64,000 nucleotides of DNA from Podospora anserina (Eukaryota). Made by a program: the position numbers and the translations under genes. Location of the stretch: positions 2,728,001 through 2,792,000 of the forward strand of contig CM030338.1 in NCBI GenBank assembly GCA_017654855.1. Reading direction: 5' to 3'. The notes below the pieces were generated by a model. The model saw nothing but the letters and a program-made list of their open reading frames with translations. It had not been told where the DNA came from and searched no databases. Below, one piece after another: positions 2,110 through 58,448 of this stretch (its first letter is position 1; each line of letters starts with the position of its first letter).

Positions 2110-2333
2110 ACAGTATATATACCATTCCAACCACACACCTTCGAACAGCTCCAATATCCTTGCCAGGGCGCCCTTGTGGTCAGGTCAAATGGTAAGGATA
2201 TTGGAGCTGTCAAACCCCCCCCGCCGGGGGCTTGCAACCGATATCCCCCGAGTTCGATTCGAAGTAAAACCACCGAGGTGTTCGTAACCGGCCACCTCCT
2301 GGGTTTGACCGGTGAGTTTTTTCGACTTTTTTT
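2110..2333 (+). ncRNA. Dispersed structured Pol III-type/tRNA-derived element, copy 1
   Basis: TATATA 2114; 21-bp hairpin 2145-2165/2190-2210; B-box-like GAGTTCGATTC 2250-2260; T6 and T7 at 2317-2333. Homologous to the copies at 40.7 kb and 58.2 kb. Confidence 0.6.
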
Positions 2334-2643
2334 CACGACCACACTCTATACAACAGAATGCTGGCAAGCAGGATGAAGAACAACTTGGACATGTGACTGC
2401 TAGCTAGCTAAGGTCTTCCCAGTGCCCAAAGTTCACACGTACCTCAATCATTTTAGACCCCTCTGCCCTCTGGAATAATTGCTACCTTTAGATCCTGCAA
2501 TATTCAGGTTGTGTTTGCAACAAAGAGGGCGAGTAATCTCACACTCGACCAAAAACTCCTCGCTCACCGAAACTGCCTAGACCAGATCCGATCGATCTTC
2601 CACAAATATCATTACAACATCATGCCTCCATGCTCACCAATGC

Positions 2644-4980
2644 TCACTTCGCAAACTATTCCAATGTTAGCCCAAATCCTCATTCAGAATGGAAAAACCA
2701 TGTACTCACAGCCTTGGCCTCCTCCTCGGTCACATCCGAAACATCCAGCTCCTCCTTCGTGATGAGCCCCAGTCCACCACCCACAATATGCTTATACCAC
2801 ATCTCCCTCCGGTCACCATCCAGCTCACCACTCAGCAAGCTCTTCTTCAGCGCTCTCAGAAGCTTGTTGTACAGCATCGGCATCTCGAACCCAAGCAACT
2901 CCTCCCTCATAACTCCCAAATTCTCAGCAGCCCGCGAGTAAAACACATCAGCAAAGCTGTCCTTGATGAGCTTCCGAACAATCTCGCCCATTTGCTTGAC
3001 AGCCTTCTCGATCGTCTCGTCGTCCTCAGCTGCGGCGAGCATCTGCTTGAACTCGGGAATAGCGTTTTCTGAAGAGATGGCAGCGCGCTTGGGTTGACCG
3101 CCAAGGAGGGAGTCAATGTCGAGGCCGGAGAGGGGCTTGACGGTGTCTTTCTTGCCGAAGCGACCTTTGGCCTTTTCGGGAACCTTCTTGAGTTCTGCGG
3201 CATCGATCAGGTTGCCGATTTCGTGCTTGGCTTTCTCGAGGAGCTTCTTTGGAGGCTTGGAGTACCTCAACAGAATCTCGGCTGGTTGCCCGATGGGCGA
3301 GTCTGGGTCAACAGCCCGGGCTCGGATGGCCTGGTTCATCCGGTGGATGATTGGGTTGTACACCTCGTCTACGGGTGCATAGTCTACTGGTTTTCTGTTG
3401 CGACATGTTAGTAAACTGCCGGGATACATGGAGCGAAAAGCATACCCATCCTCATCAACATCATAGTTCGACAAATCCATTGCGTCAACAAAGTCGCTCA
3501 CAGCGTCCTTCAAATCATCGTTTGGCAACAGCCGATGCTCCTTGAGCACACTCCCAGACACGGTAAGCACCTTGTCCAAGGGCGGGAATTGGTAACTTCG
3601 GATATCCTCGGCAAAGGGCAGAGGTACATCGTAAAGGCACTCAAACTCATCCTCAAGACCAGTGTTGGGCTTGAGAAGAAGAATCTGAACTGCAGCCTCA
3701 TCCTTTTGCACATATCTGGCAACAGCATACGAGTCAGCCTCGTAGAGAGCATGAATGAATGCCGAAAGTCCCAATTCGGCCTCCTCGTTCATTTTCTGGG
3801 GCACAATCAGACCCGTTTCGCCCATGTTGATAAAGGGATTGTAACTGTCAAAGGGGACGAACCCGATGATGGTGAATGACTTTTTGGTCGAGTACTTTGT
3901 GATGGACAGGTCGGACTCGCCAAACGGAACCACCGTGCGGCCATACTGGTAGCCCTTTGCAAGCTCTTCAAAATCAACGTCTCTCTTGCCTCCTGGGGCG
4001 TCGGGATCGTTGACCTTGTAGGTGCGCATTTGCTTGACACCGGAGAACTCGGCTCCGCCCATCTCAGAATCCCCATCTTCGTCTTTGTAGGTCTGTGATT
4101 GACTGAATCCGTTATTGTTGCTGACCACGACGGTGCTTGCTGATGGCGCAGAAGCGCGTTTGGTCTTGTAGTAACGCTCCACGTGGAAGCTGATGGCGCT
4201 TGGATATTTGTCTGGGTCTCCGAGGGTCAAAGGCCCATCATAGGCCTTGAATGGTCGTACTGGCTTGATCCGAGGTATTGACAGCTCATCCACGGCCTGT
4301 TGCATGGTGCCGAACACGCCGTCATTGCACTTTTCCACCAGTTGCTGAAGTGCCTTTTCGTTGTTTTTCTTGTTGGTAGACTTGTCTTCTTCCTTAAAGC
4401 CGTAGTCAGCGTCGTCAAAATCGATACCACTAAAAGAATGTCAGTCTGGCGCTGTCTCTTGTCGTCAGGAAATAGAAACATACATCACAATCAGTTCAAC
4501 TTTGAACTCGTTGAATACCGCAGCGATGTGGTCCAGCTCTTCATCATCAATGTTCGACTCGCCATTGGTGACAAGGATTACCCTCCGCTTGATCTTGTGC
4601 TTTGGATTGTACTTCTCAAGCATCTTCAGTGCCACCACAGCAGCAGAAACCGGATCGGCACCATAGCTCCTGGACGGCTGGACCTTGGAGCGCAATTCTC
4701 TGAGCTCCGTCATGCTCATGGGGCCGATGGGCTGTAACACAGAGATGTTATCGTAGCCCTCGAGCTTATCTTTATCCGCGAGTTCGTTCTCTGTCTCATC
4801 GGTGTTGAAGCCAACGAAACCTATGGTCCACGTCTTCCTGCTTGCCGCGACGGTATCTGAAATCTTGTCCCAAACATAGCGCATACCAAAATCGAGATCA
4901 GATTCGACGCGGCCGTTATGGCAATCAGCCATTGACTCGCCTAGGTCGACGACGTAGACTGTGGATTCCTTGTCGGCCAT
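2644..4980 (-). CDS. ku80: ATP-dependent DNA helicase II subunit 2 (Ku80), about 3 introns
   Basis: N-terminal vWA (MADKESTVYVVDLG), Ku core (KGYQYGR, LPFAEDIR.Y.FPPL) and C-terminal domain. Introns at about 4482-4430, 3444-3389 and 2710-2656; terminal exon FAK*. Confidence 0.95.
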
Positions 4981-5440
4981 TCTGTGTGTTTTTGCTCATC
5001 AACTGGAGTGAAAATGGAAGAATTGAGACGAATCCATGAGTTTCAATGTCAGATGTTCGAATAAATGGCCGTTGACACGATCTCCAGGCAGCATCGCCAA
5101 AGGACCCACGCGCCTTGATCTGGGTCTGGGATGGCAGCTGATGCCTTCCCTCTCGCGCGTGGGCACATGTCTTCGCGTCACCCAGCACTTAAACCCTCCT
5201 GCCTGCAACAAAAAGACGCTCGGGCCATGGCCCCAACCACCAGCTTCTCCACAAAGGCCAACAGCCAAGTGCACGCTTGAGCTGCACAATGATTGATTGA
5301 TAAGATCATGCCCCTCACAGAGAGTCTTGACCTCAGCTGTCTGTGAGCCCGTTCATAAATATCTCTCCAAAACACTGTTCCTCTCATCTCCTTAGCATCT
5401 TCCTCCCTATCCTTACAACCAAAACCTCACAACTCTCAAA

Positions 5441-6114
5441 ATGGGCTTCTTCTCCCCCGCCCCGTACCACATCATCAGGTACCACCACTCCTCCCCACCA
5501 GTTCACCACATACATCACCCTCAACTAACCCCCCCCCCCTCTCAGCTACGGCTTCCTTCTCGGCACAACCTTCTTCCACACCTTCGTAGGCGGCATCGTC
5601 TCCTTCCGCGTCCTCCCCCGCCCCCAGTTCTCCTCCCTCATGTCCTCCCTCTTCCCAATCTACTTCACAATCCAAACCGCCCTCCCCCTCGTCCTAGCAA
5701 TCACCTACCCCGCCAGCCAAAACCCCTTCGGCATCACCGGCGGCATCACCGGCTTCCTTCACTCCTCCAACCGCTACTCCACCTTCGTCCCCGTCACCGC
5801 CACCTTTGTGTCCGCCCTCGCCAACCTCGCCTTCGTCGGTCCTCTCACGACCAAGGTCATGGATGAGAGGAAGCTCCAGGGTATGTGTACTCCATGCCTA
5901 CAATTACATATATCACTCGGTAATTATTAATGCCACAAAAAAAACAGAAAAGAAAGACGGCAAAAAATCCTGGGACTCCCCTCCCCACTCGCAAGAAATG
6001 CAAGCCCTCAACAAGCAATTCGGCATCCTCCACGGCGTGTCCAGCTTCCTGAACCTAGGCACCTTTATCGGAAGCCTTGTTTACGGCGTTACCCTGTCCA
6101 AGAGACTCTCTTAA
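5441..6114 (+). CDS. TMEM205/DUF4149-like membrane protein, 3 exons; divergent from ku80
   Basis: Spliced product FFSPAPYHIISYGFLLGTTFFHTFVGGIVSFRVLPRPQFSSLMSSLFPIYF...LNKQFGILHGVSSFLNL; introns at about 5479-5545 and 5882-5947. Confidence 0.85.
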
Positions 6115-6215
6115 AACCAATCCCCAACTACCAGCAAGTACCTTGCTCCCCACCCGAGTTCAAAGCGAATAGTTCGTCTCAGGTCCAACGTCTCAAGTCA
6201 AAGTCAAGGTCTCTT

Positions 6216-6217
<2 letters not shown>

Positions 6218-6260
<43 letters not shown>
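6218..6260. repeat. (CA)n microsatellite
   Basis: Visible dinucleotide run. Confidence 0.95.
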
Positions 6261-6263
<3 letters not shown>

Positions 6264-6777
6264 AAGCACAAAGCCACATGGCAGCAAGCATTACGAATGA
6301 CAAATTGGTTTATTACACCATGTTTTTTATCATGTGTTTCTGCTCTGTAGGTTGGTTATACAACATACACATTTACAGACAAAAACAAAGCCCCATCCAT
6401 TTACACGCCCAAACCCAGATATCTCCAAAAAAATGACAAATTAACGCCCGCTATAGAATGCCCTTTTTCTCTCAGGAGACAGTGAAAGAAAAAAAGAAAA
6501 ATACCACAAATCCCGCCGCTTGTTGTGTGTTGTGGTATTAATAGACCCGCCAATTTTCCGTGTCAACGATCCAACGCAAATATCCCATCCCATTCATCTA
6601 CCCATCCATCCAGTCTCAGAATCCAGTTGCGGCGGCGGGCTTTGCAACCCATTCATCCATCCATCCATCTACCCACCCACCCAAATCTCGATCCAGTAGT
6701 TTCCAGGTTTCGCAACCTCTCCATCCAATCTCTTCTTTTCTTTTTCTTTTGCTTTTTGCCCTCCAAACGATGATTGA

Positions 6778-7572
6778 TCACAACCCACTAGCCAAAGCCC
6801 TCAACTCTCTCTTCACCTCCTCCATCTCCCTCCTCCTCTTCTCGGCATCCTCCTGCACCTTTCTCCTCTCCCTCTCCTCCTCTTGCTGATCAACCAGCTT
6901 TTGCTTCTCCACCCACTGCGTCAGCGTCCACCGGCCTGGCTTCCTTGCCAGGAGCTCCTCCACGCTCAACTCGGCGGCCGGCTTGGGGAATTGGGTAGAG
7001 AGGGGGTCGACTCTGATTTGCTTGCGGCCCGGGACGGGGGGTTGGACGTGAATTATGGGGGTTGTGGCTGTCCTCTTTGGTGCAGCGGGGGGAGTGGCGG
7101 TAGGAATGGCGAGGGAGGTGGTTGAGCCGCAATTGTGGCATTGGGTGAGGGTAGCAGCAGGCTTGAGGTTGTTGTTGTTGTTGTTGTTGTTGTCGGTGGG
7201 GGTGGGAGGGGTGGTGACGGGGGGAAAGTAGCTGTCTGTTGAGGTGGCGGGGGAGGAGGAGAGGGTTGGTGGGGTGGTGGTGGTGGTGGTGGCGGTGGTG
7301 GTGGTGTCCGACATGGCGGAGGGGATGGTGGCGGTGGACATTGCGGTGTTGGTTGAGGTAGAGGATGTTTTTCGGTAGAGGGATGACCAGAAGCTTGAGG
7401 AAGTAGGGGAGCTGGGTCTGCTTAGTCTTCTGCTGGTTGGTCGGCTGTTGCTGCTGCTTTCCTTCTTGTTGGCGCTGTCGTTGTCTGTCGAAGAAGAGGA
7501 AGAGGAAATCAAGAACTGGAACGGGTTGCGGAAGGAGAACCGGTTGGGGTTTGAGGACGAGGAGGCTGCCAT
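6778..7572 (-). CDS. Hypothetical S/T/N-rich protein with C-terminal coiled coil
   Basis: 264-aa ORF with strong start context (CAAAATGG); C-terminal ELSVEELLARKPGRWT followed by a charged helix. Confidence 0.65.
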   Translation of the reverse strand: MAASSSSNPNRFSFRNPFQFLISSSSSSTDNDSANKKESSSNSRPTSRRLSRPSSPTSSSFWSSLYRKTSSTSTNTAMSTATIPSAMSDTTTTATTTTTTPPTLSSSPATSTDSYFPPVTTPPTPTDNNNNNNNNLKPAATLTQCHNCGSTTSLAIPTATPPAAPKRTATTPIIHVQPPVPGRKQIRVDPLSTQFPKPAAELSVEELLARKPGRWTLTQWVEKQKLVDQQEEERERRKVQEDAEKRRREMEEVKRELRALASGL

Positions 7573-14150: not shown

Positions 14151-14153
<3 letters not shown>

Positions 14154-18199: not shown

Positions 18200-21100
18200 T
18201 AGCATCTTTTATCTGCATATATGGCTCGGCGTTTTCAACAAGTGGGCGGGGCAAGCATCATCATCATCATATCACATCTTCACTCATATCACGAACACAA
18301 ACCAACCATTCGACAAACAAACCACAATACATATACATGCAATTCCCTGTCGTTTGGTTGGCGAGTTGTTCTGGGAAGTGGGGCAGGGGGAGTAGGGTTT
18401 GTTTCACTTCTTTTCTCAGGGCGCCGGAGGCTTTGGTAATACCTTTTTTTATTCATTAAAGCCTGGATGTTGTGCACCAGGAAACATTTATAATTCATGG
18501 TTCTCAGGTGGTAAAAAAAAGAGAAGGGATGACACATGGAATGAACTTTGATATCTTTGGGCTTTTTTTGGGGGGGATTGGGGAAGGTAAACATGGAATC
18601 GGGGAAGCAAAACATCAGGCATGGCAATTCTCTCGAATTTCCTTTCTTCCGCGAACACAATCAAAACCCACACAACACACTATCTACTACAACACACTTT
18701 ACACAGCATATTCTTTTCTCTGCTCACATTGTTGGGGTTAGGTTTTTTTGTTTTTTCTCCCTTCTTCCTTTCACGATGGGGGGGCGTTTCCGGTTATTTT
18801 CGGCGCTGGACGACAGGGGCTGGGAACATTTGCAACAACGCACTTTCTTCATCACACAACTCTCAACTCCATTATTGCAACACGCTTGCTTCACTTTATC
18901 ACACCGCTGCTGCGGGACGGGACGGCGGGGAGGGGGGGGCTAAGGACAACACATCAACAACACCACCAAACACAATCCACAATTGGGCATTGTTTTTCTT
19001 TGTGCCATCTCGATTTCTTTCTTTCTTTTTCGTTCTGCTGCTGCGTGGTTGGTTTGTTGACAAGGGGGCATCTTTTTTTTAATAGCGGTCACCGACTTTC
19101 TGGATTGACACTTGACAGGGGGGAAAGTGCACCCAAGCTTCGGATCGTCAAGCCGAGAAAGGAATGGTGTTTCTCCACAAGCCTCAAAAGGGGGTGGGGG
19201 GGGGGGAGTGGTGGTTTTGACGGCGGCACGACCCGCCAATAACACTAGCCCTCTTTTTTTTCTGGGGCGGGCGGGTATGGAGTTCCGGTGAGCTGGCACT
19301 GGGGCGGGCCAGCGAGATTCTACGCAAATGCACGATGGCACCTTGGGGGGAAAGATGATCTAAGGCATTGAGACCTGAGGGGAGCTAAAGACGGGCACCA
19401 GGCACAGGCACAGAAAAGAAAGAAAGAAAGCGAGAATTGTTGGACCGAGAGAAACCGAGCTTGTTGATGGGCGTGATTGGACCGACTGATTTGAAGGCTT
19501 GATCAAAGGGGGCAATTTGACTGATTGATGTGATTATTGTGGTTTTGGTGTTTTGTGGGCTCTTTGTTTTGTTCTGTGGCACTGCGTGTTGGTGATGGTG
19601 AAAGTGGTTACGTGCATATACATGCATATATATATATATATGTTTCTTTTATGAGAAGCTGGGGGTTTTGACATTGAGGTTGGTTTAGGATGTTTTTAAT
19701 TATGAGGCATGATGGAATGAGTGAAAGCGGAGAGAGAGAGACTGGGGGATTACTGATACTTGGACCTTGAGCCCTTGGTTTTGTTTGCTACAACCAGGAC
19801 CTTACTTACACTCTGTTTGGGGATATATACCACAGAAGCTTAGCTATACCTCGCGTGCTCGGTCACAAAGACAACAACAACAACTAGAACAAGAAAAAAG
19901 AACAAAATACCAAAAGACAAATAAAGCATATTACATGTCGCACGATTTTTCTCTTATCTGTTGTTGTGGATGATAGCAGAGTTCCAGCGAACAATTCTCC
20001 CGTAGGACCGGTACCGGAAATCAAAAGCCGGTCCCGGACTGCCGGACGGAGGGGGGGCGGGTACCGGGGGAGCCGGGGCGGGTCAGCCGGGCCCAGGCAA
20101 AACTCCAGCTCAACAAACATTCTTGGCTTTTCGCTTGTCTGGTGGGTAGGGTTTCGGGATATTTGTGGACTTTTGTGGAGGAGGAAGATCCACTGAGTTG
20201 TGGAGGTGGGTGGATGTATTGGGCGAGATCCTCGATCGGGATCGACGTTTTCAATGAGCTGGGAATGATCAACGGCTTTTTCTTGACGGTTCAAGATTTT
20301 GTATGCACAGGTAACTCACCTACGCAACATTGTGTGAGATTGACCTTGGGGAGAGAGAAGTGGTTTAACCCACCTCATGAAGTGGCAGATCGAGAGGAAC
20401 GGCAGATACAGGATGTTCAAAGATCTCGATTTCGAGATCCGTAGTGGAGAGGACATTGTGGAGGAGCTCGCAACAACACTGTGTGGAAACATTGTGGGGG
20501 GATGAAGGTGTGTGTTATCAGATTATGCTGGCATCTGCTGATGTGATGTGTTTACACATGGCATGACGCGGGGACAAAGCGGGCTTCGGTTTCAATACCT
20601 CTTCAAAATATTTGTGTGTGAAATTCGCCCAGGGGGAAAAACCCTAACTTCCCCAACCTGGAGACGAGAAAAAAGGGGGGTGGGCGACGGGTTTTGATAC
20701 CATCGCCATGCTCTCTGGCAGTCCTAAATAGGAATGAGAGAGGATGGTACAAGGTATAAGAACCTTGGAAGAGAGTCTGGGGTGGGAGAAAGTGACATAG
20801 TAGGTGGGATGGGGATGGCATGGGAAAAATTAAGATGGTGGTGCTCGAAACTACCCATCCACAAGTTCAGTTCATATGGGGTGGTGGTTGTAAATGGGAG
20901 AGTTGAAAAAAGAATATCAAGTGCGGTTTATGTGGATCGAACACATGACCTTCAGATTTGTTGATTGAAGTGGACTTCAGTCTGACGCTCTCCCAACTGA
21001 GCTAAACCCGCTTTTTATGATGGTGTTGGGGGAGGGAATAGTGTATGAGGGTATTGTCAGCTTCATCAAGTTGCACAAACAAAGCGCTCCTTTGCTTGCT

Positions 21101-37418: not shown

Positions 37419-40188
37419 ATGGCTGCTCCAGAGGCCATCCAACCCGTTGTCGACGAGGCCATCTCTCCGCGACAGGATGCGCCACCGTCCATCGAGCAGG
37501 CTATGCACGAGTCCATCAAGTCCATCGAAAATATCACGCCGCTCAATCCCCTCGACCTCCGAGCCGACCCCGATGCCCAGGCCACCGTTAGTGACTTCCT
37601 CGACTTTACCGAGTACCTCCCGGCCGATATGATGCGTTCTTTGACCCTGATTGGCCAACTCGACCAGGCCTACATCGATTCCTCGAACAACATTGACGAC
37701 CTCACAACACAATGGGGCCAGCTCCCCGGCCTCCCGGCTGGTGCTAAGAGCAAGAATACACCGGTGGAGCTGCGCAGCCACGTGTCGGAAAACCTACACC
37801 ATGCCCTCAACTCTCGCGTCTATTCCCATGCCGAAGCGCAACGGATGGCCGAGAATGTGAACCGTCATCTCAACCGTGCCAAGACCATTCTCGCAAAATT
37901 GCAGGCTATGCAGGATAACTACCAAGAGTTGGAGGAGCAACAAAAGAGCCCAGTGGCCAACAGATCGCCTCAGATGTCGAGAGTGCCAAAGATTACACTG
38001 AAAATAGACGGACAGAAAGTGCGCAGGCCGAGAGTGCCTAGGATCACAGTTCCTGGCGAGGTGTTGGCGCCATACGATATCAACTTTGACGCATACACCA
38101 CGGGATCGGAGAGCAGTTCGGAGGAAGAGGATGACGCAGTATCTTCCAGCCGGGTCACTCCGGCTCCGCGCATCAAGGTCGTGAAAGGATCAACAAGGCC
38201 GCCCAAGTCGAGTGTTCCAAGGGCGCCAAGACCCAGGACATCTGTCCCCCCTCCCAATGTGCCCGGTGGGCTATCCACCAGTGCTGTCATGGCACAGCTC
38301 GTCCCTCCACCCGAAAATGCAGTCCCAGGAAGCGCCGATGCTCCATGGTGTCAGCTCACTGCGTTTGAACTGGCAAGACTTCGTAAGAGAATGAAGAAGA
38401 ACGCGGCTTGGACTCCAAGTGATACCATGGTTGCGCGAGAGCTAGCCGCGCTCGGACGAGGCGTCGATGCCTTCAAAGCTGCGAAGAAAAAGGCAGAGGA
38501 CGAGGGGAGGGTGTTTGAGGGGGCTATGCCGGTGCCGACGATCGACCCTCACACCGGCGAGAAGAGGATGCCGCTCGGGGCTTTGACTGTGGATGCTTTG
38601 GCGTCGGATGACAAGAATATCACAAACCGTGGCATGAAACTGAACGAGGCTAAGAAACTCAAGAGGGAGCAACTGGCCAAGCTGGCAGCGGACGAAGCCG
38701 AACAGTCGGCTGCCATGTTCCGGGAACAGGCACGGATGATTATGGGGGGCGTGCCTCAACCAGCTGCTGTCGCGGATGCCAAAGCAATCAAGAGCAAGGC
38801 TCCGAAGAAGCGGAAACGAGATTCGATGCCGGGAACTGAGGCCGAAGGTGCTGAAGAACAGGAGACCGCGGCGGATGGCAGTCAACAGGCTCAGAGGCCA
38901 CAGTTTAAGAGAACCAAGACGGAGACGCCTGTACCGCCGCCAATAATAACCTCTGGGAATTCTTTGGGCCCGCCTCAGGAAACGCCGGTCCAGCTTCCCC
39001 AGAGGACAAATGCGGTCTTGCACTCTACAACGCCTATACCTTTACCAAACCTTTCTCAGGACCAGTCAATAACGGCCAAGCCGGCATCAGTAATATCAGC
39101 TACCTCACCCGCCGGTAGCACCGCCGGGCCTTCGAGCGTCCCGACATTGGCACCCATCAAACTGCCGACTACCGAGACACCTATACCACCGCCAGTGATT
39201 TCACCGAAGAAGTCAGTGACGCCCATCCTGCCTCCTGTGAGAGAGACCCGCCAGAAGCAGGCCACTCGGTCGCAAGATCAGCAACAACAGTCACAACCAC
39301 AGCAGCTTCCACCAGGGGCCGTGTCAGGAGTCGCAAGCAAGGCCACGTCAAGGACAGCAAGCCCCGAGCTGGTTGCACCAAAGCCAGATCCCGACGCTGC
39401 TCCTACCCCTGCCCCTGCCCAACCAGCATCAACAGTCATAACCCGCCGCCCAGCTTCGAGAGGAAAAGCGTCAAGCCAAGAGCCAGCACTACCTCACCAC
39501 CCCCCATCTCTGGCAGCAGACCGTCCCCGCCGGACTAGCACCGCCCGAAACACCCCTGCCCCTCCAGATGTAGCCGCTGCCCTATCTTCTCACGCAACCG
39601 CGACGACTTCTGCCACTGCTGCTAGCACCACCGCCGCCACTGCTCCCACCGCCGCCGGCAACTCCACCACCAGACCGGCCAGCAAACGAGCCGGCAAGCG
39701 CCCTGCTCCCGGCGTCATCAGCCGGACCAACAGCGGCGGTAACAGCGCCGTGGGTACGCGCAAGGCGGCGCCGAGGAAGAAGCAGAGCGCCGCTACCGGG
39801 TCAAGAACTGCTGGTGGCGGTAACAAGAAGGAGAAAGAGGTGGCGGCGACGCCGGTGGAAACGCACGGCGGGACGGCAGAGGTGGAGGTGGACGACGAGG
39901 GGAATGTGATTGATCCGGAGGAGCCGAGATATTGTCTGTGTAATCGGGTCAGCTTTGGGACGATGATTCAGTGTGACAATGTTGATGTAAGTAACCCCGG
40001 AAGTGGCGGGGGGGGAGAAGGAAATGCTAATGGGGAAACAGCAATGCAAACAGGAGTGGTTTCACTTGGAGTGTGTCGGGTTGGAGGACATTCCGGCGAG
40101 GACGACGAAGTGGTATTGTCCGGATTGCAGGAAGGCGTTGAAGATTGGGGAGAGGGGGGAGGTTAGTGCCAGGGGGGTGAGGGCGTAG
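37419..40188 (+). CDS. PHD-finger protein with ING-like N-terminus
   Basis: FLDFTEYLPADMMRSLTLI at the N-terminus; EPRYCLCNRVSFGTMIQCDN|..CKQEWFHLECVGL..KWYCPDC across intron 39987-40041. Confidence 0.9.
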
Positions 40189-40681
40189 GTTTGGGGTGGT
40201 TTTTTGAGTTTCTTTCTTGGGGGATAAATGGGGGGTATGCGTGTTTGAGGGTGTGTTAATGCGGTAAGGTTGGGTTACTTTGTTAGGTTAGTTGTTTGGT
40301 ATGGGTGAGTGAGTGAGTGAGCTGGGCAATGAGAACAAGACAGTCGTCCGATTCTTTCTCTCATAAGTGAGGTGAATGTTGCTAATGACTCTTGGCTATC
40401 AAAGCAGAATCCAGATGCTCGTATCGCCATTGCTCGTTCTGGAGAATTGAGGTATAAGGTCAGGTCGCTTTGTTATGGAACTTTGTCTGGAATAAAGGAT
40501 TCAGTGATAAACAACAAGAACCGTTCGACTTTTCTTGTTATCAAAAGCAGTGCTGTTATAAATGGCGGAGCGACCTCCCAGGCAGATGAACCAACTCCTC
40601 GCTTGTCTGATCATCTTGGACGTGAAAGTGGGTTTGACCTTGTTGTCTTTATATTGGGACATCGATCGATGAGGAGTGAAG

Positions 40682-41012
40682 AAAAAGCAAAAGCTCACCA
40701 GCCCTGGGTGGGCGGACTACGAAAACCCAGTTGAGAAAGGTTTTACTTTGGGGGAGGGGGTCGAACTCGGGGGCTATCGGTTACAAGCCCCCAGCTCGGG
40801 GAGGTATTTAAACAGCAGCTCCGACATCCTTACCATTTGTCCTGACCACAAGTGTGACGCCCTGGTAAGGATACTGGAGCTGCTGTTGGAAGGTGGGTGG
40901 GGAGAGTGGTGTATATACTCTGGTAGGGGTTGCTCCTCCCTTCTGTTGTTCTGGCTTCTGTTGTTCTGGGTGGAATGACGGTGTCACATGATGGCAAAGT
41001 GTTGATCAACTT
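40682..41012 (-). ncRNA. Dispersed structured Pol III-type/tRNA-derived element, copy 2
   Basis: On the minus strand: TATATA 40917-40912; 25-bp hairpin 40887-40863/40835-40811; GAGTTCGA 40768-40761; T4GCT5 40692-40682; upstream homology with copy 3. Confidence 0.6.
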
Positions 41013-42681
41013 CCAGGTTGCGGCATGGAAAATCATTGTTATTATGGAAGGCTTTGAGTGAGTTGAGCTTGCTGCTTGACCCGCAACCGTCGTGCTTGTG
41101 GTGATTCAGTGCCGTCACTGCCACCACATACCTAAGATACCCAAGGTAGCCTTCCTACATCAGGTACATGTCGAATATACCAGCAGCAACAGTCAAGATC
41201 CCATGAAGTTCCCCGCTCAATATCACAACAAATCTCGATGAAAAGTACGGAACATCACTCAAGTGCATAAACCATTTCGCTAAGACGCTTCGTATACCTG
41301 CATGTAGCTGCCCCCAGAGCGAACAAACCATTACCCTAACTTCCAAAGTGAGGGATGTATCTCTCCCAATGTGGCGTTTCGAAAACAGACTCGGGCAGGT
41401 GGCTGATGCTGATGAAGGACTCGAGAAGAAAGGTGGTGTCAAGGCACAGCCTCCACCAAACACGCCTTCCAACATGATAGGCTCGAAAACATCAAATTCC
41501 AAACTCACCGCCGAGCCTGCTCTAAAGTTATCCTTTGTAGTTTGTTCATCGAGATTCAACTTGAAGTACTCAGGCAAAGCAAGAGCTAATTACATCAACA
41601 CTTCTACTCTCTCGCGACATAGTAGCTTGTCCAACACGATCCCATAAAAGTCTCCCTCCAAGACCCCTTTCCCGCTGAGTAATGTAATCACCTTAAACCA
41701 ACATCGCCATCAAAGCGTTTCTCATCGTCAGCCCAAAAAAGGAAAGTTGCGAGGTTACATTGAAGATGATCTACAAACTCGACACAGTTGACGATGCACA
41801 CCCCGCATAATACCCGGCTTCCTTTCCGGTTCCGAATGAACAAGCTTTTGGGAGGAAGTGCCTAGCGATAAATGGGAAGCTCAAACGTTGGGGACCACTG
41901 CAAAAAGTGCTTCTCGGGGAATTATTTTGTGATTTGCGGTTGGTGTTTTGGAGGTCCAAACGGGACGGGAAATGCAAAAGAGTGAAGGTCAGGGGTCTTG
42001 AGGGTTTTTTAGTTTATTGTAAGCTTACGGGGTGTGATACTAGGGTGATACTGTTCATTCTGATCTCGAAGCAGCGTGCGTTATGGTATCTTCATGTTCA
42101 ATGGCCCGATGTTACATGCTGACTCTAACCTTACCCACAGACACAGCTCCTCTGGCAGTCTATACCACTGTGACAACCTCCCAGAACACATCAAAGCTTT
42201 GTGACTGCAAATGCGGCTAAACACACCGCCTTGCCAACAACCACTCCCGAACCCTGGGATCATCATGCAGTGTATGGCGATCAGGGAGTTCACGATGACA
42301 AAAGAGCATTCTCCATTCGACCGAAAGCACAGCAGCACCGAGATGTCGTTGCGTTGAGGTGTGAGCGGACGGCAAGAAGGTAGGACTTTCTCGTGCGGAT
42401 GGCACATCCCGTGCCGCTGTCACAGTTAGTATCAAACATTAGACGGAAGGGCAGGTAGGTGTCTGTGTGGGCTGTCAGGAGGTTAAACACCCAAGGGTCC
42501 CAGAGCAGAGTCAAAGCTGCCTCCTATCCGTCCTTTCCTGCTCTTCTTCTCCTTAACTCGAGGCACTGCCTTTACCTTCCGTACATATCTTTCCCAATGA
42601 TACCGATACTCGCCTCATTAGTTTCACCAGACCAAACACACCCTACTTGAAGTTGACCATCACCTCAGCAGACACAACAAC

Positions 42682-51776: not shown

Positions 51777-52370
51777 TGATTCAAGACGAATGGCCCGCAC
51801 CCCTTTCAAGCACAGCAGCACCTCTCTCGGCTCGATTCTCTTTTTTCTGCACCAAGGGCGGCGAAGATGACCTCCCGTCGTGTATTTGACCAAAGGATTT
51901 GCACAATTCCCAGGCGTTTTTCTTTTTCTCTCTCATGGGACAAAGCATAGTAAGGTGTCATGGCGTTGATTTAAGTCTTTTTTTCTTGTTCTCACATTGA
52001 TCTCGACAAACTTTTTTGTTTCTCTTTATTTCCGTCTAGAATCTGGCACACAGCAGCACAGCGAAATTTAATTACAAGCGGGGTATGGGGGTGAATACGG
52101 CCACGGGTTCACCTTGATCCTTTTTCTTATTTTCCTAAACAAAATTATGTTTCTGGTTCATTCAACGAAGTGGGGAGAAGTGTGCGTGTGTGCGTACGTG
52201 GTTGAGAGTTGAGTACTGTCTGTCAGCGAAAGCGAAGCGAATTGTATCTTTAACAAGCAGAGATGTGGCTAGAGGTGTAAGGGTTGATGGGTGATGAGTG
52301 ATGTTGAAAGACAGAAGACAGCGTGAAGTTTTTTAATAGATGTGTCTGGTGTTTTGACCGGGGGGGGGTG

Positions 52371-52430
52371 GGGGGGATGGTGTTGTGAGGAGGTGGATGG
52401 TGTTGTGAGGAGGGGGATGGTGTTGTGAGG
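52371..52430. repeat. 20-bp minisatellite x3 (core GGATGGTGTTGTGAGG)
   Basis: Three tandem near-identical units. Confidence 0.85.
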
Positions 52431-53970
52431 GGGGGGAGTGGCGTGATGTCGCGGTGGTGGTGGTGGTGAACTATGGAGGGAGTTGAACAACAACAGGGAC
52501 GAAAGAGACGACGATGAAGAGGAACAACTACAACAACAACATCAACAACACAAACAAAACACAAAGCAAGTAAGGGGAGAAAAAGGCAACAAGACGTAAT
52601 GGTGATGGTGGTGTGGTGGTGATGGTGGGTGGAGGAGGTGATTTTTTTGTCAATTCGGCATTCAGAGACAAGTTCAAAAATACATATATCATCTTTTTCT
52701 TTTCTTTTGCGCTTTTTGGGGGATGTTTGATAGTTGAGGTGTATCTTGTGTGAAGTTGCGGAATGGGGGAGGATGATGATGGTGAGGGAGTGGGGGTAAT
52801 TCTACTGGGTGTGGTGGTGGTGTAAAGTAGATAGATATTATTGTCGAGTTGGAATGGGATATATGGGTTTACAAGCTTGACGAGTAGTGGTTGTGATGTG
52901 TTATCATCAGCTTCTATTTGGTATATGCGAGGCCGTTATAGATGTGCTGTATGCACGGCGCAACCGAGCCGGGCCAAGGTGGGAACTAGTTTCCTGAAGT
53001 TTACGAATGGAAACTGGCCGTTGGATGATGACCTGCCTTGCTTTTTGGTTGGCGGTGCTTTTGGCTAACGGTCGCGAACCTTGCAGTAGCTTGGGGCTGA
53101 AGAGTGGGATGAGGGGATGGGGATGGGGAAGATCGAGATGGGATTAGTTTCTATTGGGTTCTACGGGGACAGAAGAAACAGCAGAAGAAGAAGAATTCTG
53201 TCGATGGTGTGCAGGTGATCACGACCCGAGTTGGGATATCCGGTATCTTTCACATGTATGACTGTCCCTCTGCAGCAGCAAACGACCGAGCCCCGTCCGT
53301 GTTAGAGTGTGTAGGCAAACCACTTTACGGGAGTGGGCTGGTCAGTGGTGTCATAGATCGCACAGTATATATATATATGTACTGCATGAATAGTAATTCT
53401 CGTGTGCAGGACCACACTACCACTTCGGTGTCCTCCCACTCCCCGCGTGTCCGTTGCGTCCGGTTCTCCGTATGGGGGATTGGTTCGTTTGTGAAATACG
53501 AACTTTTTTTTTTAATGATCTGCCTGCGCACAAGTGTGAAGAAAGGGTTTGTGGGGGTGGGTGCCGTGCGTTCAGGGGTCTTGAAGGAGGGACAGTGTGA
53601 GTTTGGGGAGGAGCTAACTGTGCTTGGGGCCTCGAGAAGTGCATAGGCCAATCAGACGCGGCGCGCAAAGAAGTGTGGGTTCAGCCTTGCAGGGCTGGCT
53701 GGGTGAGAGAGGATGAGATAATGGGATTTTTTTTTTTGGTTTTTCTTTGTTTTTTTTTTTGGAGGGGTTGCGGATTTGCGATTACAACGAAAATTGAAGG
53801 GAAGATTTGCGACGACGACGACGACGACGGAAAAGGTGAGCTTGGGAAGGGAAAAAATCGTGGCGTTTTTTACTTTGGGAAGAAGGCTCCTCCACGCCGC
53901 TGGTGGGAGAGGTGGTACCTCGCAGGCTGGTTCTTCTTTCTTCTTTAGCAGCAGAGGGTTGTACTCGACC

Positions 53971-55650
53971 ATGGCGACGGCTCCGACAATAGATGCCCCA
54001 GCGGCGGCGACGGTGAAGAAGTTGCACGGGAGGGAGTTCTACGAGAGTATCGGGTCGCCAAAGTATATCCTCGCGCCAATGGTTGATCAGTCCGAATTTG
54101 TACGCCCTCCCTTCTCTGTTCATGACTGATTTTTGGCTGACGTGATGGTTTTTTGCTTCCAGGCCTGGCGTATGCTCTCCCGCTCATTCATGCCCCCCGA
54201 GCTGCAGTCAAAACTCCTCGCCTACACCCCCATGTTCCACGCCCGATTGTTCTCCCAAGACGCTCCGAAACCGCCCTACAACAAATACCGCGACTCGCAC
54301 TTCCAGTGCGTCCTCCCCAAAGACCCTGCCACCCTCTGGCTCGACGGCAACCCCCTTGTCGGCGACAGGCCGCTGTTTGTACAATTCTGCGCCAACGACC
54401 CCCAGCACTTGCTGGCTGCTGCCTTAAAAGTCGCCCCCTACTGCGACGCGGTAGACCTCAACCTCGGCTGCCCGCAAGGTATCGCCAAAAAGGGGCACTA
54501 CGGCAGTTTCTTGCAGGAGGATCAGGAGTTGATTTATAGGTTGATCAACACCCTTCACGAGAATCTTCCCATCCCAGTAACGGCCAAGATTAGGATTTTG
54601 GAAACAAAGGAGAAGACGCTGGAGTACGCAAAGAATGTGTTGAGTGCCGGGGCGAGTATATTGACTGTTCACGGGAGGAGGAGGGAGCAGAAGAGCCATT
54701 TGACGGGGGTGGCGGATTGGGAGTATATTCGGTATTTGAGGGATAACCTACCGGCGGAGACGGTCATTTTTGCGAACGGGAATGTTCTGGAGCACGGGGA
54801 TATCGAGGAGTGTATTGCTGCTACGGGGGCGGATGGGGTTATGTCTGCTGAGGGGAACTTGTCTAACCCGGCGATTTTTGCGCCTGAGCCTCAGCCGGGG
54901 GCGTTTGAGGATGAGTTCTGGAGGGGGAGGGATGGGAAGGGGGGATGGAGGGTTGATGCTGTTTTTAGACGGTATCTGGATATTTTACACAAGTATGTGA
55001 AGGGGGGTGAGCCACCGGCGAGGAGGCCATTGTTTGTACCTGGGAAGGGGATGGATACGGAGTGGATGACGGAGGAGATTGTGATCCCGCCGAAAAAGGG
55101 GTCGAAATCAGAGGCATTCGGTAACCCCAACTATGGTGCCCTTCAGGCGCACATGTTCCACCTCTTACGGCACTTTGTCTCAAAGCACCATGATGTAAGA
55201 GATGCATTGGCTAGGGCGAGGTTAGGAGAGTTGGAGCAGTTTGAGGGGATATACAAGATGGTTGAGAAGAAGGTTGCGGAGGGACTCATCGAGTACGAGG
55301 AGACGGATGGGAAGTCGATGGAGGATCCTGCGGAGGAAGAGAGGTTAAAGAAGCTGGTGGAGGAGATGGGTCCGGCGGAGACGAGCGCGACGGCGATTTT
55401 GAGGTGTAAGAGGCCTTGGTGGTGTGTGCAGCCTATCATTCGGCCGTTGCCCAAGGAGGCGATGGCTAGAGGTGCGATTCAGCCGGGGAAGAAGGATAAG
55501 AAGCGGGTAGCGGAGGAGGAGGCCAACGGCGGTGAGAAGAGGGTGAAGGGCGATGAGACAAATGGGGGGGATGCTAAGGTGGTAGAGGCCGTGAAAGAGG
55601 AGCTGGAGAAGCAGACGGAGTTCCAAACGAGCGAGCTTGTTAGCGGCTGA
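53971..55650 (+). CDS. dus1: tRNA-dihydrouridine(16/17) synthase, 2 exons
   Basis: ILAPMVDQSEF|AWR, DRPLFVQFCAND, VDLNLGCPQ, TAKIR, TVHGR, ANGN, GVMSAEG; intron 54100-54162. Confidence 0.95.
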
Positions 55651-55713
55651 AATCTCGAGGGAATATAGATGAATAAATGATCATTACTGCAAACTGGGCT
55701 GGGTGTGGGTTCT

Positions 55714-57726
55714 CTACCTGATGGTGACCATCTCATAGTTCTCCAGCGGCTTTCTGGCTTCAAACGCAATTCCATCCATGAACTCATCCACATAAGCAGG
55801 GGCCAATTACCTTGTAACTTCCATCACCCTCCCCTGAATCCCTCGTAACGACAGGAGTTGAACCCCCAAAGAAAACAAAAATCTTGTCCCCTTTTTCCGA
55901 TGTCATGGGCGCAATCCCCGCCGATACACCATCACGTCCCGGTACGGTAGCAGTAACCAAACAAGCGCCCTTCCAGGCCTCGGCCATGGAGGTCAAAAAT
56001 ACATTGGCTGGACCATTGGCTAGACCATTGTCAGAAGTGCCCCTAGATGATGACCCAAGTGCGGTTAATAACTGAGAAAATTGTTGTCGGTGGTCGAGGT
56101 TTTCGCCGAGCCACTCGGGGTACAAGTACCTGCCCATCAAAGTGCGAATGCAATCGGCACGGCCGAGAGGAGGGGTTGCATTGTATCCAAAATGCGAGTG
56201 TGTCCGCTGTATCAAAGTACGAATGTCTTGGCGTGCTCTGGCAGGATCAATAGAAGTGAAAGAAGGCCCCTGGAATCCCAATCTCTCCATCATCCTGTGG
56301 TCTGCATCCAGCTGGGGCGCCAAGGCCTCGATATCGACGCTTGGGTAAACTTGCTTGATGGTGGCCATGTGTATTCCAGCGACTTGAATCGCAGTATCAT
56401 CATCGTTGAACAGTGGGTGTTCCGGCGTCAGCCCTGAGAAGCGTCTCCCCGCTTCGTGACGAGACCAAGTACGTGTCATGAAGGGAGGCAGGGTTAGATC
56501 GGGGACCCAGGATGGTAGATTTGTGTCACTTTGAGATTCTGACTGACTCTTGCTCAGCATCAACCCGTCCAGGAACGAGGATGAAAAGGTCAGGCCCATG
56601 ATGCTTGAGGAAGGCCTTGGCGAAGTCTTTGAATGCCGTGCAATGATGAAGTGTGGTGTCGATAGTAATTTGCGTCTGGATTTCCGGACTGACAAGCCTG
56701 AGTATTCCATACACTCTGTCCCTAGGCTCGGTGCAATCCCGTTGCCGAACAAGAGTGACTACCTCGAGATCGTAGCGACGAGAGTCATTCCGCTCCTGGC
56801 AGCGAACAAGAGTATCTGCCGTTTTTATTAGTCAACGGCTTAACCAGTTCCTTGAATGAAGAGCAGAAATCATACCAAAAGGCTTTAGGGCCCCATATCC
56901 AAGGCTTGCCCTTCTAGCCACACCTATGCTGCTTTGGCACTCTTCCGGACAGCGCAAGTACACGGTGGCTAGTTCATCCCAGCTTTTGATGGAACGACCG
57001 CAAACCAGCCGTGCACTCCTGGCCAAGAGAACCTCTTGTAGTGTCCATATGCGGGTAAACCACTGGCGTTGAAAGAGGGCTTCACAGTCTTTCAAGTGGC
57101 GGCTGTACATACCCAACACCACGAAACCCTGTGTTCTCATAGGCGGACACCGCGCTATCGCAAATGCGAACTCCCTCGTCTTCTCCAGGCTCTCTTCCAT
57201 CTTCGAGTCACCGTCACCGGCCCAGATGGTGACGAGTTCCGCCTCTCTATAGATGTCACCCTTCATTCCAATCTGGACACCTTTCCCGTCCTCGTCTTCC
57301 TGATTGATGCATATCTGATCGATCCAGATCCATTGAGGGTGCCGGATGGCATCCAAGTCTCTGAACACTTGAAGAGCCTTGTGAAGTTCTGGCCAAATGT
57401 CCAACTGGCGAGTCTTGTTTACTCGTATATTCTGTTTGGGCTCAGGTGGTCCCCAGCAGTATGGAAGGGCTTGGTAACTTGGGCACTTGCTGATCGGGAA
57501 TGTCTTTGGTTTGAGGGAGATCAGCTCACTGTTTTCCGCACTCTTGACCTTCTTACCCTCCCTGGCTCTCCACTTTCTTCCCTTATTACCCCCTCTTCCT
57601 CTTTTCGTTTTGGCTGCACCCTTCTCTCCTCCCGCTTTTCTTGTGTCTTTCTCCCTACGGCGTGGTAACAGTCTGAGAAGCCTGAACTCGGTGGGATGAA
57701 GGGGTTCGTAGAGAGAGGAGGACATG
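55714..57726 (-). pseudogene. HET-domain (HET-6-like) heterokaryon incompatibility gene with two frameshifts
   Basis: FRLLRL, YQALPYCWG, WIDQICINQED, WFTRIWTLQE, then an intron (about 56874-56817), CTEPRDRVYGIL, a frameshift before LPSWVPD, and a second frameshift in IGPC-T-YVDEFMDG near 55794. Confidence 0.85.
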
Positions 57727-58159
57727 GCCGTTGGGAAATGGTGATGTCCAGATGTCAAGAATTGGTGAAAAGACAATTCAAGAGGATTATAATGAATTTG
57801 GGCTGCGATGGATACTCAACTGCACTTATAATCGTCTCTCCCGACTTGAAAGTCAGACAAGGCTCTCATGCGCCAACCCAGCCTGCTTCCAACACGGCAG
57901 CTGTACTGCAGCGCCAAGGTCTTCATGTCGAACATAGCGCTTATAATCACCTCTCAGTGGTCATAGAGGCTACTTCCCGACAAAATTCGGAGGTGTGACG
58001 AGGCTCATGATTAGACGATGTTGTAGGATTGAACTGAGTGATTGGTGGTGTCTTGTTGTCGCAGGATGGCTGGCCAGATGTAAGCGAACAGTGTGTTATC
58101 AAGAGATCGTAAAAGGCAGAAAGAAGCGAGAGGGACTACTTGTGAGAGGGAAGGCACGG

Positions 58160-58448
58160 GTTGGTCAACAACCCACGGTCGTCATGTGATGCAGCCATTC
58201 CATCCAAAGCAAGAGAGGGAAGGGACAACCGCGTACCTTCCAACAGCTCCAATATCCTTACCAGGGCACCCTTGTGATCAGGTCCAAATGGTAAGGATGT
58301 TGGGGCTGTTAAAACTCGCCCCCCGCCGGGGGGCTTGCAACCGATAGCCCCCAGGTTCGATTCCAAAGCAAACCCCTCGAGAGGGGTTTCGTAACCGGCC
58401 ACCTCTCTCAGAACGCTGAGGGGGCTGACCGGTGAGCTTTTGCTTTTT
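58160..58448 (+). ncRNA. Dispersed structured Pol III-type/tRNA-derived element, copy 3
   Basis: 22-bp hairpin 58242-58263/58289-58310; consensus B-box GGTTCGATTCC 58354-58364; two 3' hairpins; T4GCT5 58438-58448. Confidence 0.6.

Follow-up and report, generated by a model that had tools for sequence, protein, structure and literature searches.

Three copies of a repeated, non-coding unit lie in the 64-kb window, the whole 64,000-nucleotide stretch of Podospora anserina DNA that was analysed here (Table 1). All three are intergenic and lie beside ordinary genes, among them Ku80, an ING-like gene, cutinase, HET, GH16 and Dus. A sequence-only reading of this DNA had described three copies with one order of parts; all are found where it placed them, with the listed parts in the same order. 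The similarity among the copies far exceeds chance: in blastn, copies 1 and 3 share 84% identity over 180 nt (E 3e-42), copies 1 and 2 71% over 277 nt (E 4e-34), and copies 2 and 3 71% over 236 nt (E 2e-28). The proposed multicopy, non-coding family is thereby borne out as genuine, with E values from 1e-28 to 1e-42. The alignment gaps, of 1, 3, 4, 7 or more bases, do not preserve frame and break any reading frame, which makes the unit non-coding and is consistent with the earlier remark that no ORF is conserved. Across the window, nhmmer returns three full-length matches, which are these copies, and no fourth; of its other five hits, three are the hairpins on the opposite strand and two have E values of 0.21 and 7.2. 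The family is known from these three copies, all in one 64-kb window.

Table 1 Features of the repeated unit in the window. Basis is given for all copies unless stated otherwise.
Feature	Copy 1 (+)	Copy 2 (-)	Copy 3 (+)	Basis
Whole repeated unit: upstream (promoter) region, body and double T-run	2093..2336; nhmmer E 1.6e-84	40676..41010; nhmmer E 2.2e-78	58160..58449; nhmmer E 5.7e-76	blastn (copy 1: HSP limits against copy 2); nhmmer
Palindrome GTTGATCAAC, left edge of copy 2 homology with copy 3		41010-41001		alignment
TATA box, starting 23 nt before ACCTTC	2114..2121, TATATATA	40912..40917, TATATA		alignment of copies 1 and 2
ACCTTC	2137-2142	40894-40889	58235-58240	read from sequence
Predicted RNA body	2137..2322, ACCTTC to first T-run (both ends predicted); MFE -81.6 kcal/mol	40682..40894; MFE -80.7 kcal/mol	58235..58448; MFE -99.6 kcal/mol	folding
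Long hairpin P2	2144..2211; ~22 bp with structured apical loop	40811..40887; 3-nt insertion, CAG in one arm matched by CTG in the other	58242..58310	folding (copy 2: also alignment)
P3 hairpin GGGGGCTTGYAACCGATAKCCCCC (GGGGG, conserved 14-nt loop, CCCCC)	2226..2249	40769..40792	58329..58352	sequence, alignment
B-box-like RGTTCGANNC	2251..2260, AGTTCGATTC	40758..40767, AGTTCGACCC	58354..58363, GGTTCGATTC, then C (full GGTTCGANNCC match)	motif search
GGTGAG	2311-2316	40699-40694	58431-58436	read from sequence
Terminator-like double T-run, after GGTGAG	2317..2333, T6-CGAC-T7	40681..40693, CTTTTGCTTTTTC (T4-GC-T5)	58437..58449, CTTTTGCTTTTTC (T4-GC-T5)	sequence

In each unit a stretch of ~45-130 nt upstream is followed by a 185-215-nt body and then by a double T-run at which homology stops. 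Pol III-type signals had been proposed for it, and they are present: a TATA box in two of the three copies, a B-box match and oligo-T in all three. As had been reported, copies 1 and 2 have an upstream TATA box; it lies at the same distance in both, and copy 3 has a 29-nt alignment gap in its place. The B-box matches fall in one shared alignment column. The 10-mer itself is not rare (4 in the window, 4.06 expected by chance), and it carries weight only through its conservation and position. The T-run doublets stand precisely at the end of homology in every copy, the second run being only T5 in copies 2 and 3. The window's 5S gene (58918-59037) has CATAAA at -30 and a terminator T6-GTGC-T5, a design like the unit's double T-run, and a T6 run ends its tRNA-Phe. 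No A box was recognised by eye in the unit. Taken as sequence signals, the TATA box, B-box match and double T-run are consistent with a Pol III gene. The yeast genes SNR6, SCR1 and RPR1 are hybrid Pol III genes in which an external TATA box is combined with an oligo-T terminator and with a B box that binds TFIIIC and is a promoter element, not a folded T arm. The unit likewise pairs an upstream TATA box with a B box and oligo-T, but it has no Rfam homology to these genes and no identified A box.

For each copy, none of 200 shuffles folds as well as the native sequence; the z scores are -5.9, -4.6 and -5.5 for copies 1, 2 and 3. The earlier claim that pairing is kept while the stems differ holds by eye but does not reach statistical support. 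Across the three copies 31 of 47 pairs are invariant, and standard pairs fill 95% of the 141 pair cells, compared with 33-49% after the partners are slid. Only 4 of the 47 pairs change on both sides, a number equalled by 32 of 500 shuffles, and the covariation score is reached by 19 of 500; with three sequences the test is underpowered, and covariation support is weak. The matched insertion in P2 of copy 2 lies in a DNA palindrome and could have its source in a DNA-level process. As to strand, the proposed sense strand gives P2 an extra stability of 4.5-6 kcal/mol in copies 1 and 3, with five G-U pairs against one A-C mismatch in arms read by eye. The whole element folds slightly better in antisense (-83.1, -81.1 and -101.6 kcal/mol, compared with -79.6, -78.5 and -99.6 in sense).

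Conservation is uneven along the unit. Identity between copies is 88-90% in the long hairpin, in GTTCGA and in the GGGGG..CCCCC hairpin with its 14-nt loop, while linkers and 3' stems reach 53-73% and carry many indels, which fall in the linkers and the tips of the 3' stems. In the three comparisons, 97/109, 98/109 and 96/109 positions are identical in the conserved blocks (ACCTTC with P2, P3 and the B box), compared with 32/60, 48/66 and 41/68 in the variable ones (Fisher p = 4e-7, 0.006 and 3e-5, respectively). Within P3, 22-23 of 24 positions are identical between copies. Its 14-nt loop has kept its sequence, as has the apical loop of P2. This unevenness argues for selection over neutral decay. 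The targets of selection would be the 5' hairpin with its apical loop, the 14-nt loop and the B box, and not the 3' stems.

No Rfam family matches the unit at its gathering score, and, in line with the sequence-only reading, the unit is not 5S, tRNA or snRNA. At E values up to 10 there are only generic hairpin-type hits and one tRNA-Sec, the best match in the tRNA clan (12.6 bits against a gathering score of 47), and no snRNA or snoRNA family. ARAGORN returns nothing on the unit at default or 90% thresholds; at 80% and 70% it makes only mutually inconsistent calls, and it finds the window's tRNA-Phe in the same run. Given these results and the lack of an A box recognisable by eye, the proposed tRNA derivation is not supported, and tRNA ancestry is not demonstrable from the sequence. 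Of the sequence-only reading as a whole, the multicopy non-coding family, the Pol III-type signals and the lack of an Rfam match found support; tRNA derivation and the SINE alternative did not.

The three old, diverged, ~300-base non-coding copies look like genes for an undescribed Pol III small RNA. Our preferred reading, to which we give a probability of about one half, is a dispersed family of Pol III ncRNA genes that was copied as DNA with its own promoter and terminator. Counting against it are the missing TATA box of copy 3, the short second T-run of copies 2 and 3, the lack of a recognised A box, the commonness of the B-box-like 10-mer, the weak covariation and the slightly better antisense fold of the whole element. 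The dispersed 5S genes of Podospora and Neurospora offer a parallel for DNA-level copies of a small Pol III unit; 87 such genes are reported for P. anserina (PMC2441463). As in the unit, a TATA-like box lies near -30, the terminator is a double T-run, and conservation is limited to the gene and its immediate flanks. The unit differs from 5S in having no sequence or structural similarity to it in Rfam, a longer upstream homology and far more diverged copies (71-84%).

The best placed of the alternatives, though an unlikely one, is an RNA made by Pol II, either from a stand-alone snRNA- or snoRNA-like gene carrying a TATA box and upstream elements, or as a conserved structured module within a longer ncRNA. 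The 45-130 nt of upstream homology contain motif-like blocks (GTTGATCAAC / GTTGGTCAAC, a palindrome; TCATGTGA; the TATA box), and GAGCUUUUGC is loosely Sm-site-like. However, a canonical Sm site is lacking, and the Sm-like sequence is not followed by a 3' terminal stem-loop, since homology stops at the T-runs, whose doublet has the design of the window's 5S terminator; the lack of snRNA and snoRNA matches also counts against Pol II. Four sequencing runs, only guessed to be RNA and yielding contigs of unknown strand, bear on the same question at copy 2. Contigs cross the predicted start in three of the four (X15 40861-41194, X16 40834-40984, X17 40842-40992) and the predicted terminator in two (X15 40225-40740, X19 40569-40736), at a depth of 2-7 compared with 18-83 for the neighbouring gene. 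These runs of guessed RNA show no transcript with the size or ends predicted. The contigs bridging the predicted start and terminator count for a Pol II RNA and against the preferred reading: any transcription of copy 2 in those libraries is not that of a discrete unit. The signal may be read-through from the + strand gene; contig cover, of unknown strand, declines away from that gene, as expected of read-through.

Somewhat less probable again is a role at the level of DNA: the unit could be a boundary element or bind TFIIIC, it could be a palindrome at which recombination or replication takes place, or it could be what is left of a non-autonomous DNA element. The conserved B-box match with no A box found, the intergenic setting of every copy, and P2 as a DNA palindrome whose arms changed together in copy 2 all speak for it. 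However, the unit has neither terminal inverted repeats at its ends nor significant flanking direct repeats, and the G-U-type changes favour one strand of P2. A bare palindrome would not need the loop sequences kept in P3 and P2, and the TATA box and T-runs flank the conserved body as in a gene.

We consider it improbable that the unit is an RNA already known, in a divergent form (SRP, U-snRNA, RNase P/MRP or Y-like RNA), or a Podospora repeat on record that the libraries miss. Fungal lineage-specific RNAs are incompletely covered by Rfam, and the Podospora genome paper lists repeats whose origin is unknown (Additional data file 3, PMC2441463). Against this, the repeat repa is given as the yeti LTR (PMC13449251), and no LTR ends were found on the unit by reading its sequence. 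Three copies at 71-84% identity are unlike single-copy SRP or RNase P RNA, the Rfam hits at E values up to 10 are generic hairpins and one tRNA-Sec at 12.6 bits, and no description of the unit was found in the literature searched.

A tRNA-derived SINE spread by retroposition of its Pol III transcript is the reading to which we give least credence. The unit is short, dispersed and non-coding with a B-box match, each copy has CTTGYAA exactly 15 nt ahead of TTCGANN (the canonical spacing from anticodon loop to T loop), and low-copy tRNA-related SINEs are described in fungi (PMC5063351); but the stems beside these 'loops' lack tRNA-type pairing, no cloverleaf is found by ARAGORN (default, 90%) or Rfam, and homology between the copies takes in a TATA box and 45-130 nt ahead of the presumed start, none of which a retroposed transcript would bring along. 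Mg-SINE of Magnaporthe is one fungal tRNA-related SINE. Target-site duplications are not significant, since the longest shared flank words of 5-7 nt are matched by 59 to 465 of 500 shuffles, and the T-runs take the place of an A-rich, simple-repeat or LINE-like tail. Like the unit, AfuSINE2 of Aspergillus fumigatus is a short dispersed element in few copies, and both combine Pol III promoter motifs with a body unrelated to tRNA; AfuSINE2 has 4-14-bp target-site duplications and a tRNA-related head (PMC5063351), and the unit has neither. Homology that includes the promoter, ends at the terminator and lacks target-site duplications therefore favours DNA-level gene duplication over SINE retroposition.

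For the preferred reading of a Pol III gene family, the nearest comparison is with milR-1 to milR-4 of Neurospora crassa, likewise intergenic and in Sordariales (Yang et al. 2013, PMC3547838). There, Pol III makes the major milRNAs from short hairpin precursors (~170 nt for milR-1) with T-cluster terminators, and TATA-like elements are needed for its recruitment. The T-run directly follows the milRNA sequences in Neurospora, whereas 110-135 nt of conserved and variable RNA (P3, the B box and two hairpins) separate hairpin and T-run in the unit. In the same account milR-1 has no A or B box, unlike the unit with its B-box match, and milR-4 lies between two real tRNA-Ala genes and requires RNase Z, whereas the unit has no detectable tRNA fold. 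The unit is also multicopy, unlike the Neurospora genes, and its small RNAs are only predicted. The 10-mers of its hairpin core are absent from nine supplementary files of a compendium of fungal mi/milRNAs (PMC9757828).

The family would have been duplicated as DNA together with promoter and terminator, as for the dispersed 5S genes of P. anserina. Most likely, the TATA box and the internal B-box-like GTTCGANNC would recruit Pol III, with a transcription start near ACCTTC and an end in the T-runs. The predicted RNA would begin with a near-perfect hairpin of 22-25 bp, followed by the GGGGG/CCCCC hairpin with its conserved 14-nt loop, then a B-box region left single-stranded and a pair of variable hairpins on the 3' side. 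Speculatively, the B-box module may serve chiefly as an internal promoter. We infer a role as a milRNA-like precursor or an RNP RNA; our best guess is that the 5' hairpin would be the working part, either cut by Dicer to give a milRNA-like small RNA or bound by a protein as a stem.

The three copies of the element (c1, c2 and c3) constitute a real, non-coding family that is selectively maintained and laid out like a Pol III gene. The common order of parts proposed in the sequence-only reading was borne out when all three copies were read and aligned. The 5' half consists of ACCTTC, which is the conserved start of the predicted RNA body, a long hairpin (P2), a C-rich linker, GGGGGCTTGYAACCGATAKCCCCC (the hairpin P3) and R-GTTCGA. 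The 3' half contains a hairpin opening with AAACC, then TCGTA, a further hairpin, GGTGAG and a double T-run. When compared pairwise by blastn together with their 800-nt flanks, the copies show 84% over 180 nt for c1 and c3 (E 3e-42), 71% over 277 nt for c1 and c2 (E 4e-34) and 71% over 236 nt for c2 and c3 (E 2e-28), the last pair having a second, upstream piece in common. An nhmmer profile built from the three copies detects no fourth copy in the 64-kb window; the remaining 5 matches are the hairpins on the opposite strand and two at E values of 0.21 and 7.2. All copies are intergenic and located in ordinary gene-rich DNA, with Ku80, topoisomerase III, Stb3, ING-like, cutinase, Dus, HET-domain and GH16 genes among the neighbours. 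c3 and the 5S rRNA gene lie 474 nt apart, tail to tail.

For every pair, the homology ends directly after the second T-run, and just 3–8 of the 18 nt downstream of the unit are identical between copies. Upstream of ACCTTC, it reaches 44 nt between c1 and c2, including the TATA box, and approximately 115 nt between c2 and c3, where it extends to a palindrome. A 29-nt alignment gap takes out the TATA segment of c3. Only an ATCATG-like remnant is seen in c1 at the place of the palindrome. The palindrome and TCATGTGA may be promoter motifs of the upstream region or sites bound by factors. Since the homology spans promoter, body and terminator, it indicates DNA duplication of a gene and not retroposition of a transcript; the family is dispersed as DNA together with its own promoter and terminator. 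The similarity between copies is mosaic: c1 and c3 are most alike in the body, c2 and c3 in the terminator and far upstream region, and c1 and c2 in the TATA region. Such a pattern would be in line with gene conversion, or with a larger family that is sampled by the three copies.

Positions of the three copies, their parts and some genes of the window
Feature	Position	Strand	Remark
Copy c1	2093-2336	+	
Copy c2	41010-40676	-	
Copy c3	58160-58449	+	
P2 hairpin, c1	2144-2211		
P2 hairpin, c2	40887-40811		
P2 hairpin, c3	58242-58310		
C-run/G-run/C-run region, c1	2215-2249		
C-run/G-run/C-run region, c2	40803-40769		
C-run/G-run/C-run region, c3	58320-58352		
Palindrome GTTGATCAAC, c2	41010-41001		left edge of c2-c3 homology
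Palindrome GTTGGTCAAC, c3	58160-58169		left edge of c2-c3 homology
TCATGTGA, c2 and c3			about 10-20 nt after palindrome
HET-domain gene	56832-57815	-	other side of c3 from 5S gene
5S rRNA gene	58918-59037	-	Rfam 90 bits; intact; CATAAA at -30; terminator T6-GTGC-T5
tRNA-Phe(GAA) gene with intron	20922-21011	-	Rfam and ARAGORN intron option; ends in T6

Identity is unevenly distributed along the unit. It is high in ACCTTC with the 5' arm of P2, the better conserved of the two arms (31–32/34 positions), in the P2 apical loop (17–19/21) and 3' arm (17–19/22), in P3 including its 14-nt loop (22–23/24) and in the B box (6–8/8). The C-rich linker (7–9 of 13–17), the segment from the B box to TCGTA (17–24 of 29–33) and the last hairpin (8–20 of 18–24, with many indels) are variable. 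When pooled for the three pairs of copies, 97/109, 98/109 and 96/109 positions are identical in the conserved blocks, compared to 32/60, 48/66 and 41/68 in the variable blocks (Fisher p = 4e-7, 0.006 and 3e-5). If an old duplicate were decaying neutrally, identity would be lost evenly along it; parts of the unit are therefore maintained. Not only the stems but also the loops are kept in sequence, which speaks for a sequence-specific partner or a role in the promoter in addition to the structure.

Each of the copies folds better than 200/200 of its own shuffles (z of -5.9, -4.6 and -5.5). P2 forms a near-perfect stem of 22–25 bp in 3/3 copies (-40.5 to -41.1 kcal/mol), which is longer in c2 owing to a matched 3-nt insertion, with CAG in one arm and CTG in the other. 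The G-run of P3 has a C-run on each side and can pair with one or the other, so that two mutually exclusive hairpins are possible in 3/3 copies; in the minimum-energy folds its partner is the upstream C-run for c1 and c3 and the downstream C-run for c2. Both 3' hairpins of c3 are strong (-11.9 and -23.4 kcal/mol), and their counterparts in c1 and c2 are weak. It had been proposed that pairing is kept despite differing stems. This agrees with the RNAalifold consensus, in which 95% of 141 pair cells hold standard pairs, compared to 33–49% when the partners are slid. As a claim of covariation it does not stand, since with three sequences the signal is not significant: of the 47 consensus pairs, 31 are invariant and only 4 are changed on both sides, and column shuffles reach the double-change count in 32/500 cases and the covariation score in 19/500. 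P2 is more stable by 4.5–6 kcal/mol on the proposed sense strand in c1 and c3, with no difference between strands in c2, whereas for the whole element the antisense fold is slightly the better one; the strand is therefore not fixed by folding alone. The arms of P2 read AUCCUUACCAGGG (5') and UGGUAAGGAU (3') at 40811-40887, and the same arms are present in c1 and c3. We take the 5' arm (CUUACC) to resemble the 5' end of U1 snRNA, a post-hoc likeness that may be due to chance. The same applies to the resemblance of the 3' arm (GGUAAG) to a 5' splice site.

In a Pol III gene, a TATA box is expected about 25–30 nt before the start, and a B box is defined by GGTTCGANNCC. The TATATA reported for c1 and c2 is present in both and missing in c3; it begins 23 nt before ACCTTC, the presumed start. 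RGTTCGANNC occurs at one aligned position in 3/3 copies, as expected of a B box, and c3 matches the full consensus (GGTTCGATTCC). The 10-mer is no commoner in the window than by chance (4 occurrences vs 4.06 expected), and the weight of the match comes from its conservation and position. Inspection by eye revealed no match to the A box TRGCNNAGTGG with fewer than 3 mismatches near the start of c1, c2 or c3. The homology ends with oligo-T, T6 and T7 in c1 and T4-GC-T5 in c2 and c3, a design that is shared with the terminator of the 5S gene in the window. In Neurospora 5S genes and in fission yeast, Pol III promoters usually depend on TATA. Dependence on TATA is also stated for milR-1, a microRNA-like RNA (milRNA) precursor of Neurospora, in PMC3547838. 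On the basis of this layout, we predict that the family encodes an RNA of about 200 nt made by Pol III, with a probability of roughly one half.

Expression was assessed at c2. None of the sequencing runs is recorded as RNA; the share of sampled words is 0.68–0.73 in 14 DNA-like runs and 0.15–0.38 in 6 that are guessed to be RNA. Four guessed-RNA runs were examined over 40000–41500, using contigs that carry no strand, ends or level. In the four runs contigs end at 40137–40153 on the ING-like gene, and before 40042 all four run on into a long stretch without a match, as would fit a splice junction in this neighbouring gene. Contigs over 40222–40740 and 40834–41194 have a depth of 2–7, compared to 18–83 on the ING-like gene. 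This low-depth cover reaches 41186–41194 in three studies and then stops. The predicted c2 start is bridged in 3/4 runs and the predicted terminator in 2/4, and the stretch 40741–40833 is without a contig in the four runs, a gap that proves nothing. The contigs show that the intergenic region around c2 is transcribed at a low level, in runs that are only guessed to be RNA. The signal crossing c2 is possibly read-through from the + strand gene, antisense to c2, or may represent an unannotated transcript; a discrete 200-nt RNA is not shown by the contigs over c2 in the four runs. Short non-polyadenylated RNAs are expected to be lost from such libraries, so that this result is not decisive either way. 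That the element belongs to a Pol II or longer transcript, to which the bridging of its predicted ends would correspond, we consider improbable, given the terminator design shared with the 5S gene.

It is somewhat less probable still that the family is a DNA-level element.

That a known RNA or repeat has been missed here is quite unlikely. In a search of the whole window with Rfam 15 at gathering thresholds, only the 5S and tRNA-Phe genes pass. The best matches to the individual copies at E up to 10 are hairpin-only miRNA models, with 24–27 bits compared to gathering scores of 75–86, and further sub-threshold matches comprise bacterial oddities and tRNA-Sec on c3 (12.6 bits vs a gathering score of 47). 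The earlier statement that the element is not 5S or tRNA is thus confirmed, with no Rfam family at gathering score on any copy. The Podospora genome paper counts 87 5S, 361 tRNA, 14 snRNA and 13 snoRNA genes and also lists 'repetitive elements of unknown origin' (PMC2441463). The repeat repa is the yeti LTR, according to PMC13449251 and PMC3321046, and the relevant passages of an RNA-seq re-annotation of P. anserina make no mention of Pol III or such a family (PMC9801653). We found no published description of the family; the list of unknown-origin repeats in PMC2441463 lay outside this comparison, and the family may be listed there.

The description of the element as tRNA-derived is not supported. 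ARAGORN identifies a tRNA in 0/3 copies at default and 90% thresholds, with the control tRNA-Phe found, and the calls that it makes at 80% and 70% are inconsistent with one another in position, strand and anticodon. CTTGYAA is located exactly 15 nt before TTCGANN in 3/3 copies, which is the canonical spacing between the anticodon loop and the T-loop, but the presumptive anticodon-stem and T-stem sequences do not pair. Given the unpaired stems and the lack of support from ARAGORN and Rfam, tRNA ancestry is a lead and not a result; ARAGORN at default and 90% thresholds and Rfam detect no cloverleaf, and what the description retains is the B-box match. The tRNA-Phe gene itself was overlooked by ARAGORN at default settings and recovered with the intron option.

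A tRNA-derived SINE, the alternative raised with that description, would share the B box but is very improbable, as the copies have a common upstream promoter, end in T-runs and lack a significant target-site duplication. The copies of a SINE would be expected to start at the transcription start, whereas the shared homology begins upstream of it and includes the TATA box. No A-rich, simple-repeat or LINE-derived 3' tail is found, T-runs ending all three copies. The longest words shared by the flanks measure 5–7 nt and are equalled or exceeded in 59 to 465 of 500 shuffles, depending on which of 6 boundary choices is used. ACCACAC (7 nt), at 2130-2136 and 2337-2343, flanks the c1 body, and 59/500 shuffles contain a word as long; it is not a target-site duplication, because the upstream copy is inside the promoter region homologous to c2.

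If the family does encode a Pol III-made RNA, P2 might yield a putative milRNA-like small RNA, a proposal that we regard as tentative and rather unlikely. The stem of about 20 bp or longer that is characteristic of milRNA precursors is present in P2 in 3/3 copies. Equally doubtful is the broader proposal that the copies belong to a multicopy, selectively maintained set of endogenous 'Pol III short-hairpin genes', specific to the lineage and producing a putative milRNA-like guide. In such genes, a module of TATA and B box, possibly the remnant of a tRNA gene, would drive the RNA, whose 5' end would be at or beside the base of the 22–25-bp hairpin. The hairpin would be freed and then diced into a conserved milRNA-like guide, and the 14-nt loop together with the alternative C-run/G-run/C-run pairing may serve as a switch for processing or protein binding. 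We know of no fungal milRNA for which this gene architecture has been described. RNAi-type silencing has seemed weak in this fungus. Four 10-mers from the stem core, in DNA and RNA spelling and from both arms, have 0 occurrences as exact words in the supplementary files (n=9) of a compendium of fungal hairpin RNAs (PMC9757828). A search of the window outside the copies for targets of the hairpin arms (20-mers, up to 4 mismatches) gave 2 matches, each with 4 mismatches and each involving the loop section of the hairpin, and no usable target. The hairpin-arm pattern has 0 matches in prokaryote genome contigs and the P3 pattern 0 in viral contigs. The P3 pattern was also found at 8 loci in JGI metagenome contigs, all of them chance matches without the GGGGG/CCCCC or GTTCGA context.

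To our knowledge, the Pol III products recognised in filamentous fungi outside tRNA, 5S, U6, SRP and RNase P RNA are few. The main microRNA-like RNAs of Neurospora are made by Pol III (PMC3547838). A conserved multicopy unit with a TATA box, a B box, a terminator and a Dicer-sized hairpin would offer, in a model species, a concrete and readily testable case of what may be a new family of small-RNA genes in fungi. It would also illustrate the spread of such genes as DNA together with their promoters. Should the family turn out to be silent, or to function as DNA, it is still a selectively maintained intergenic element that has been missed by current annotation and Rfam.
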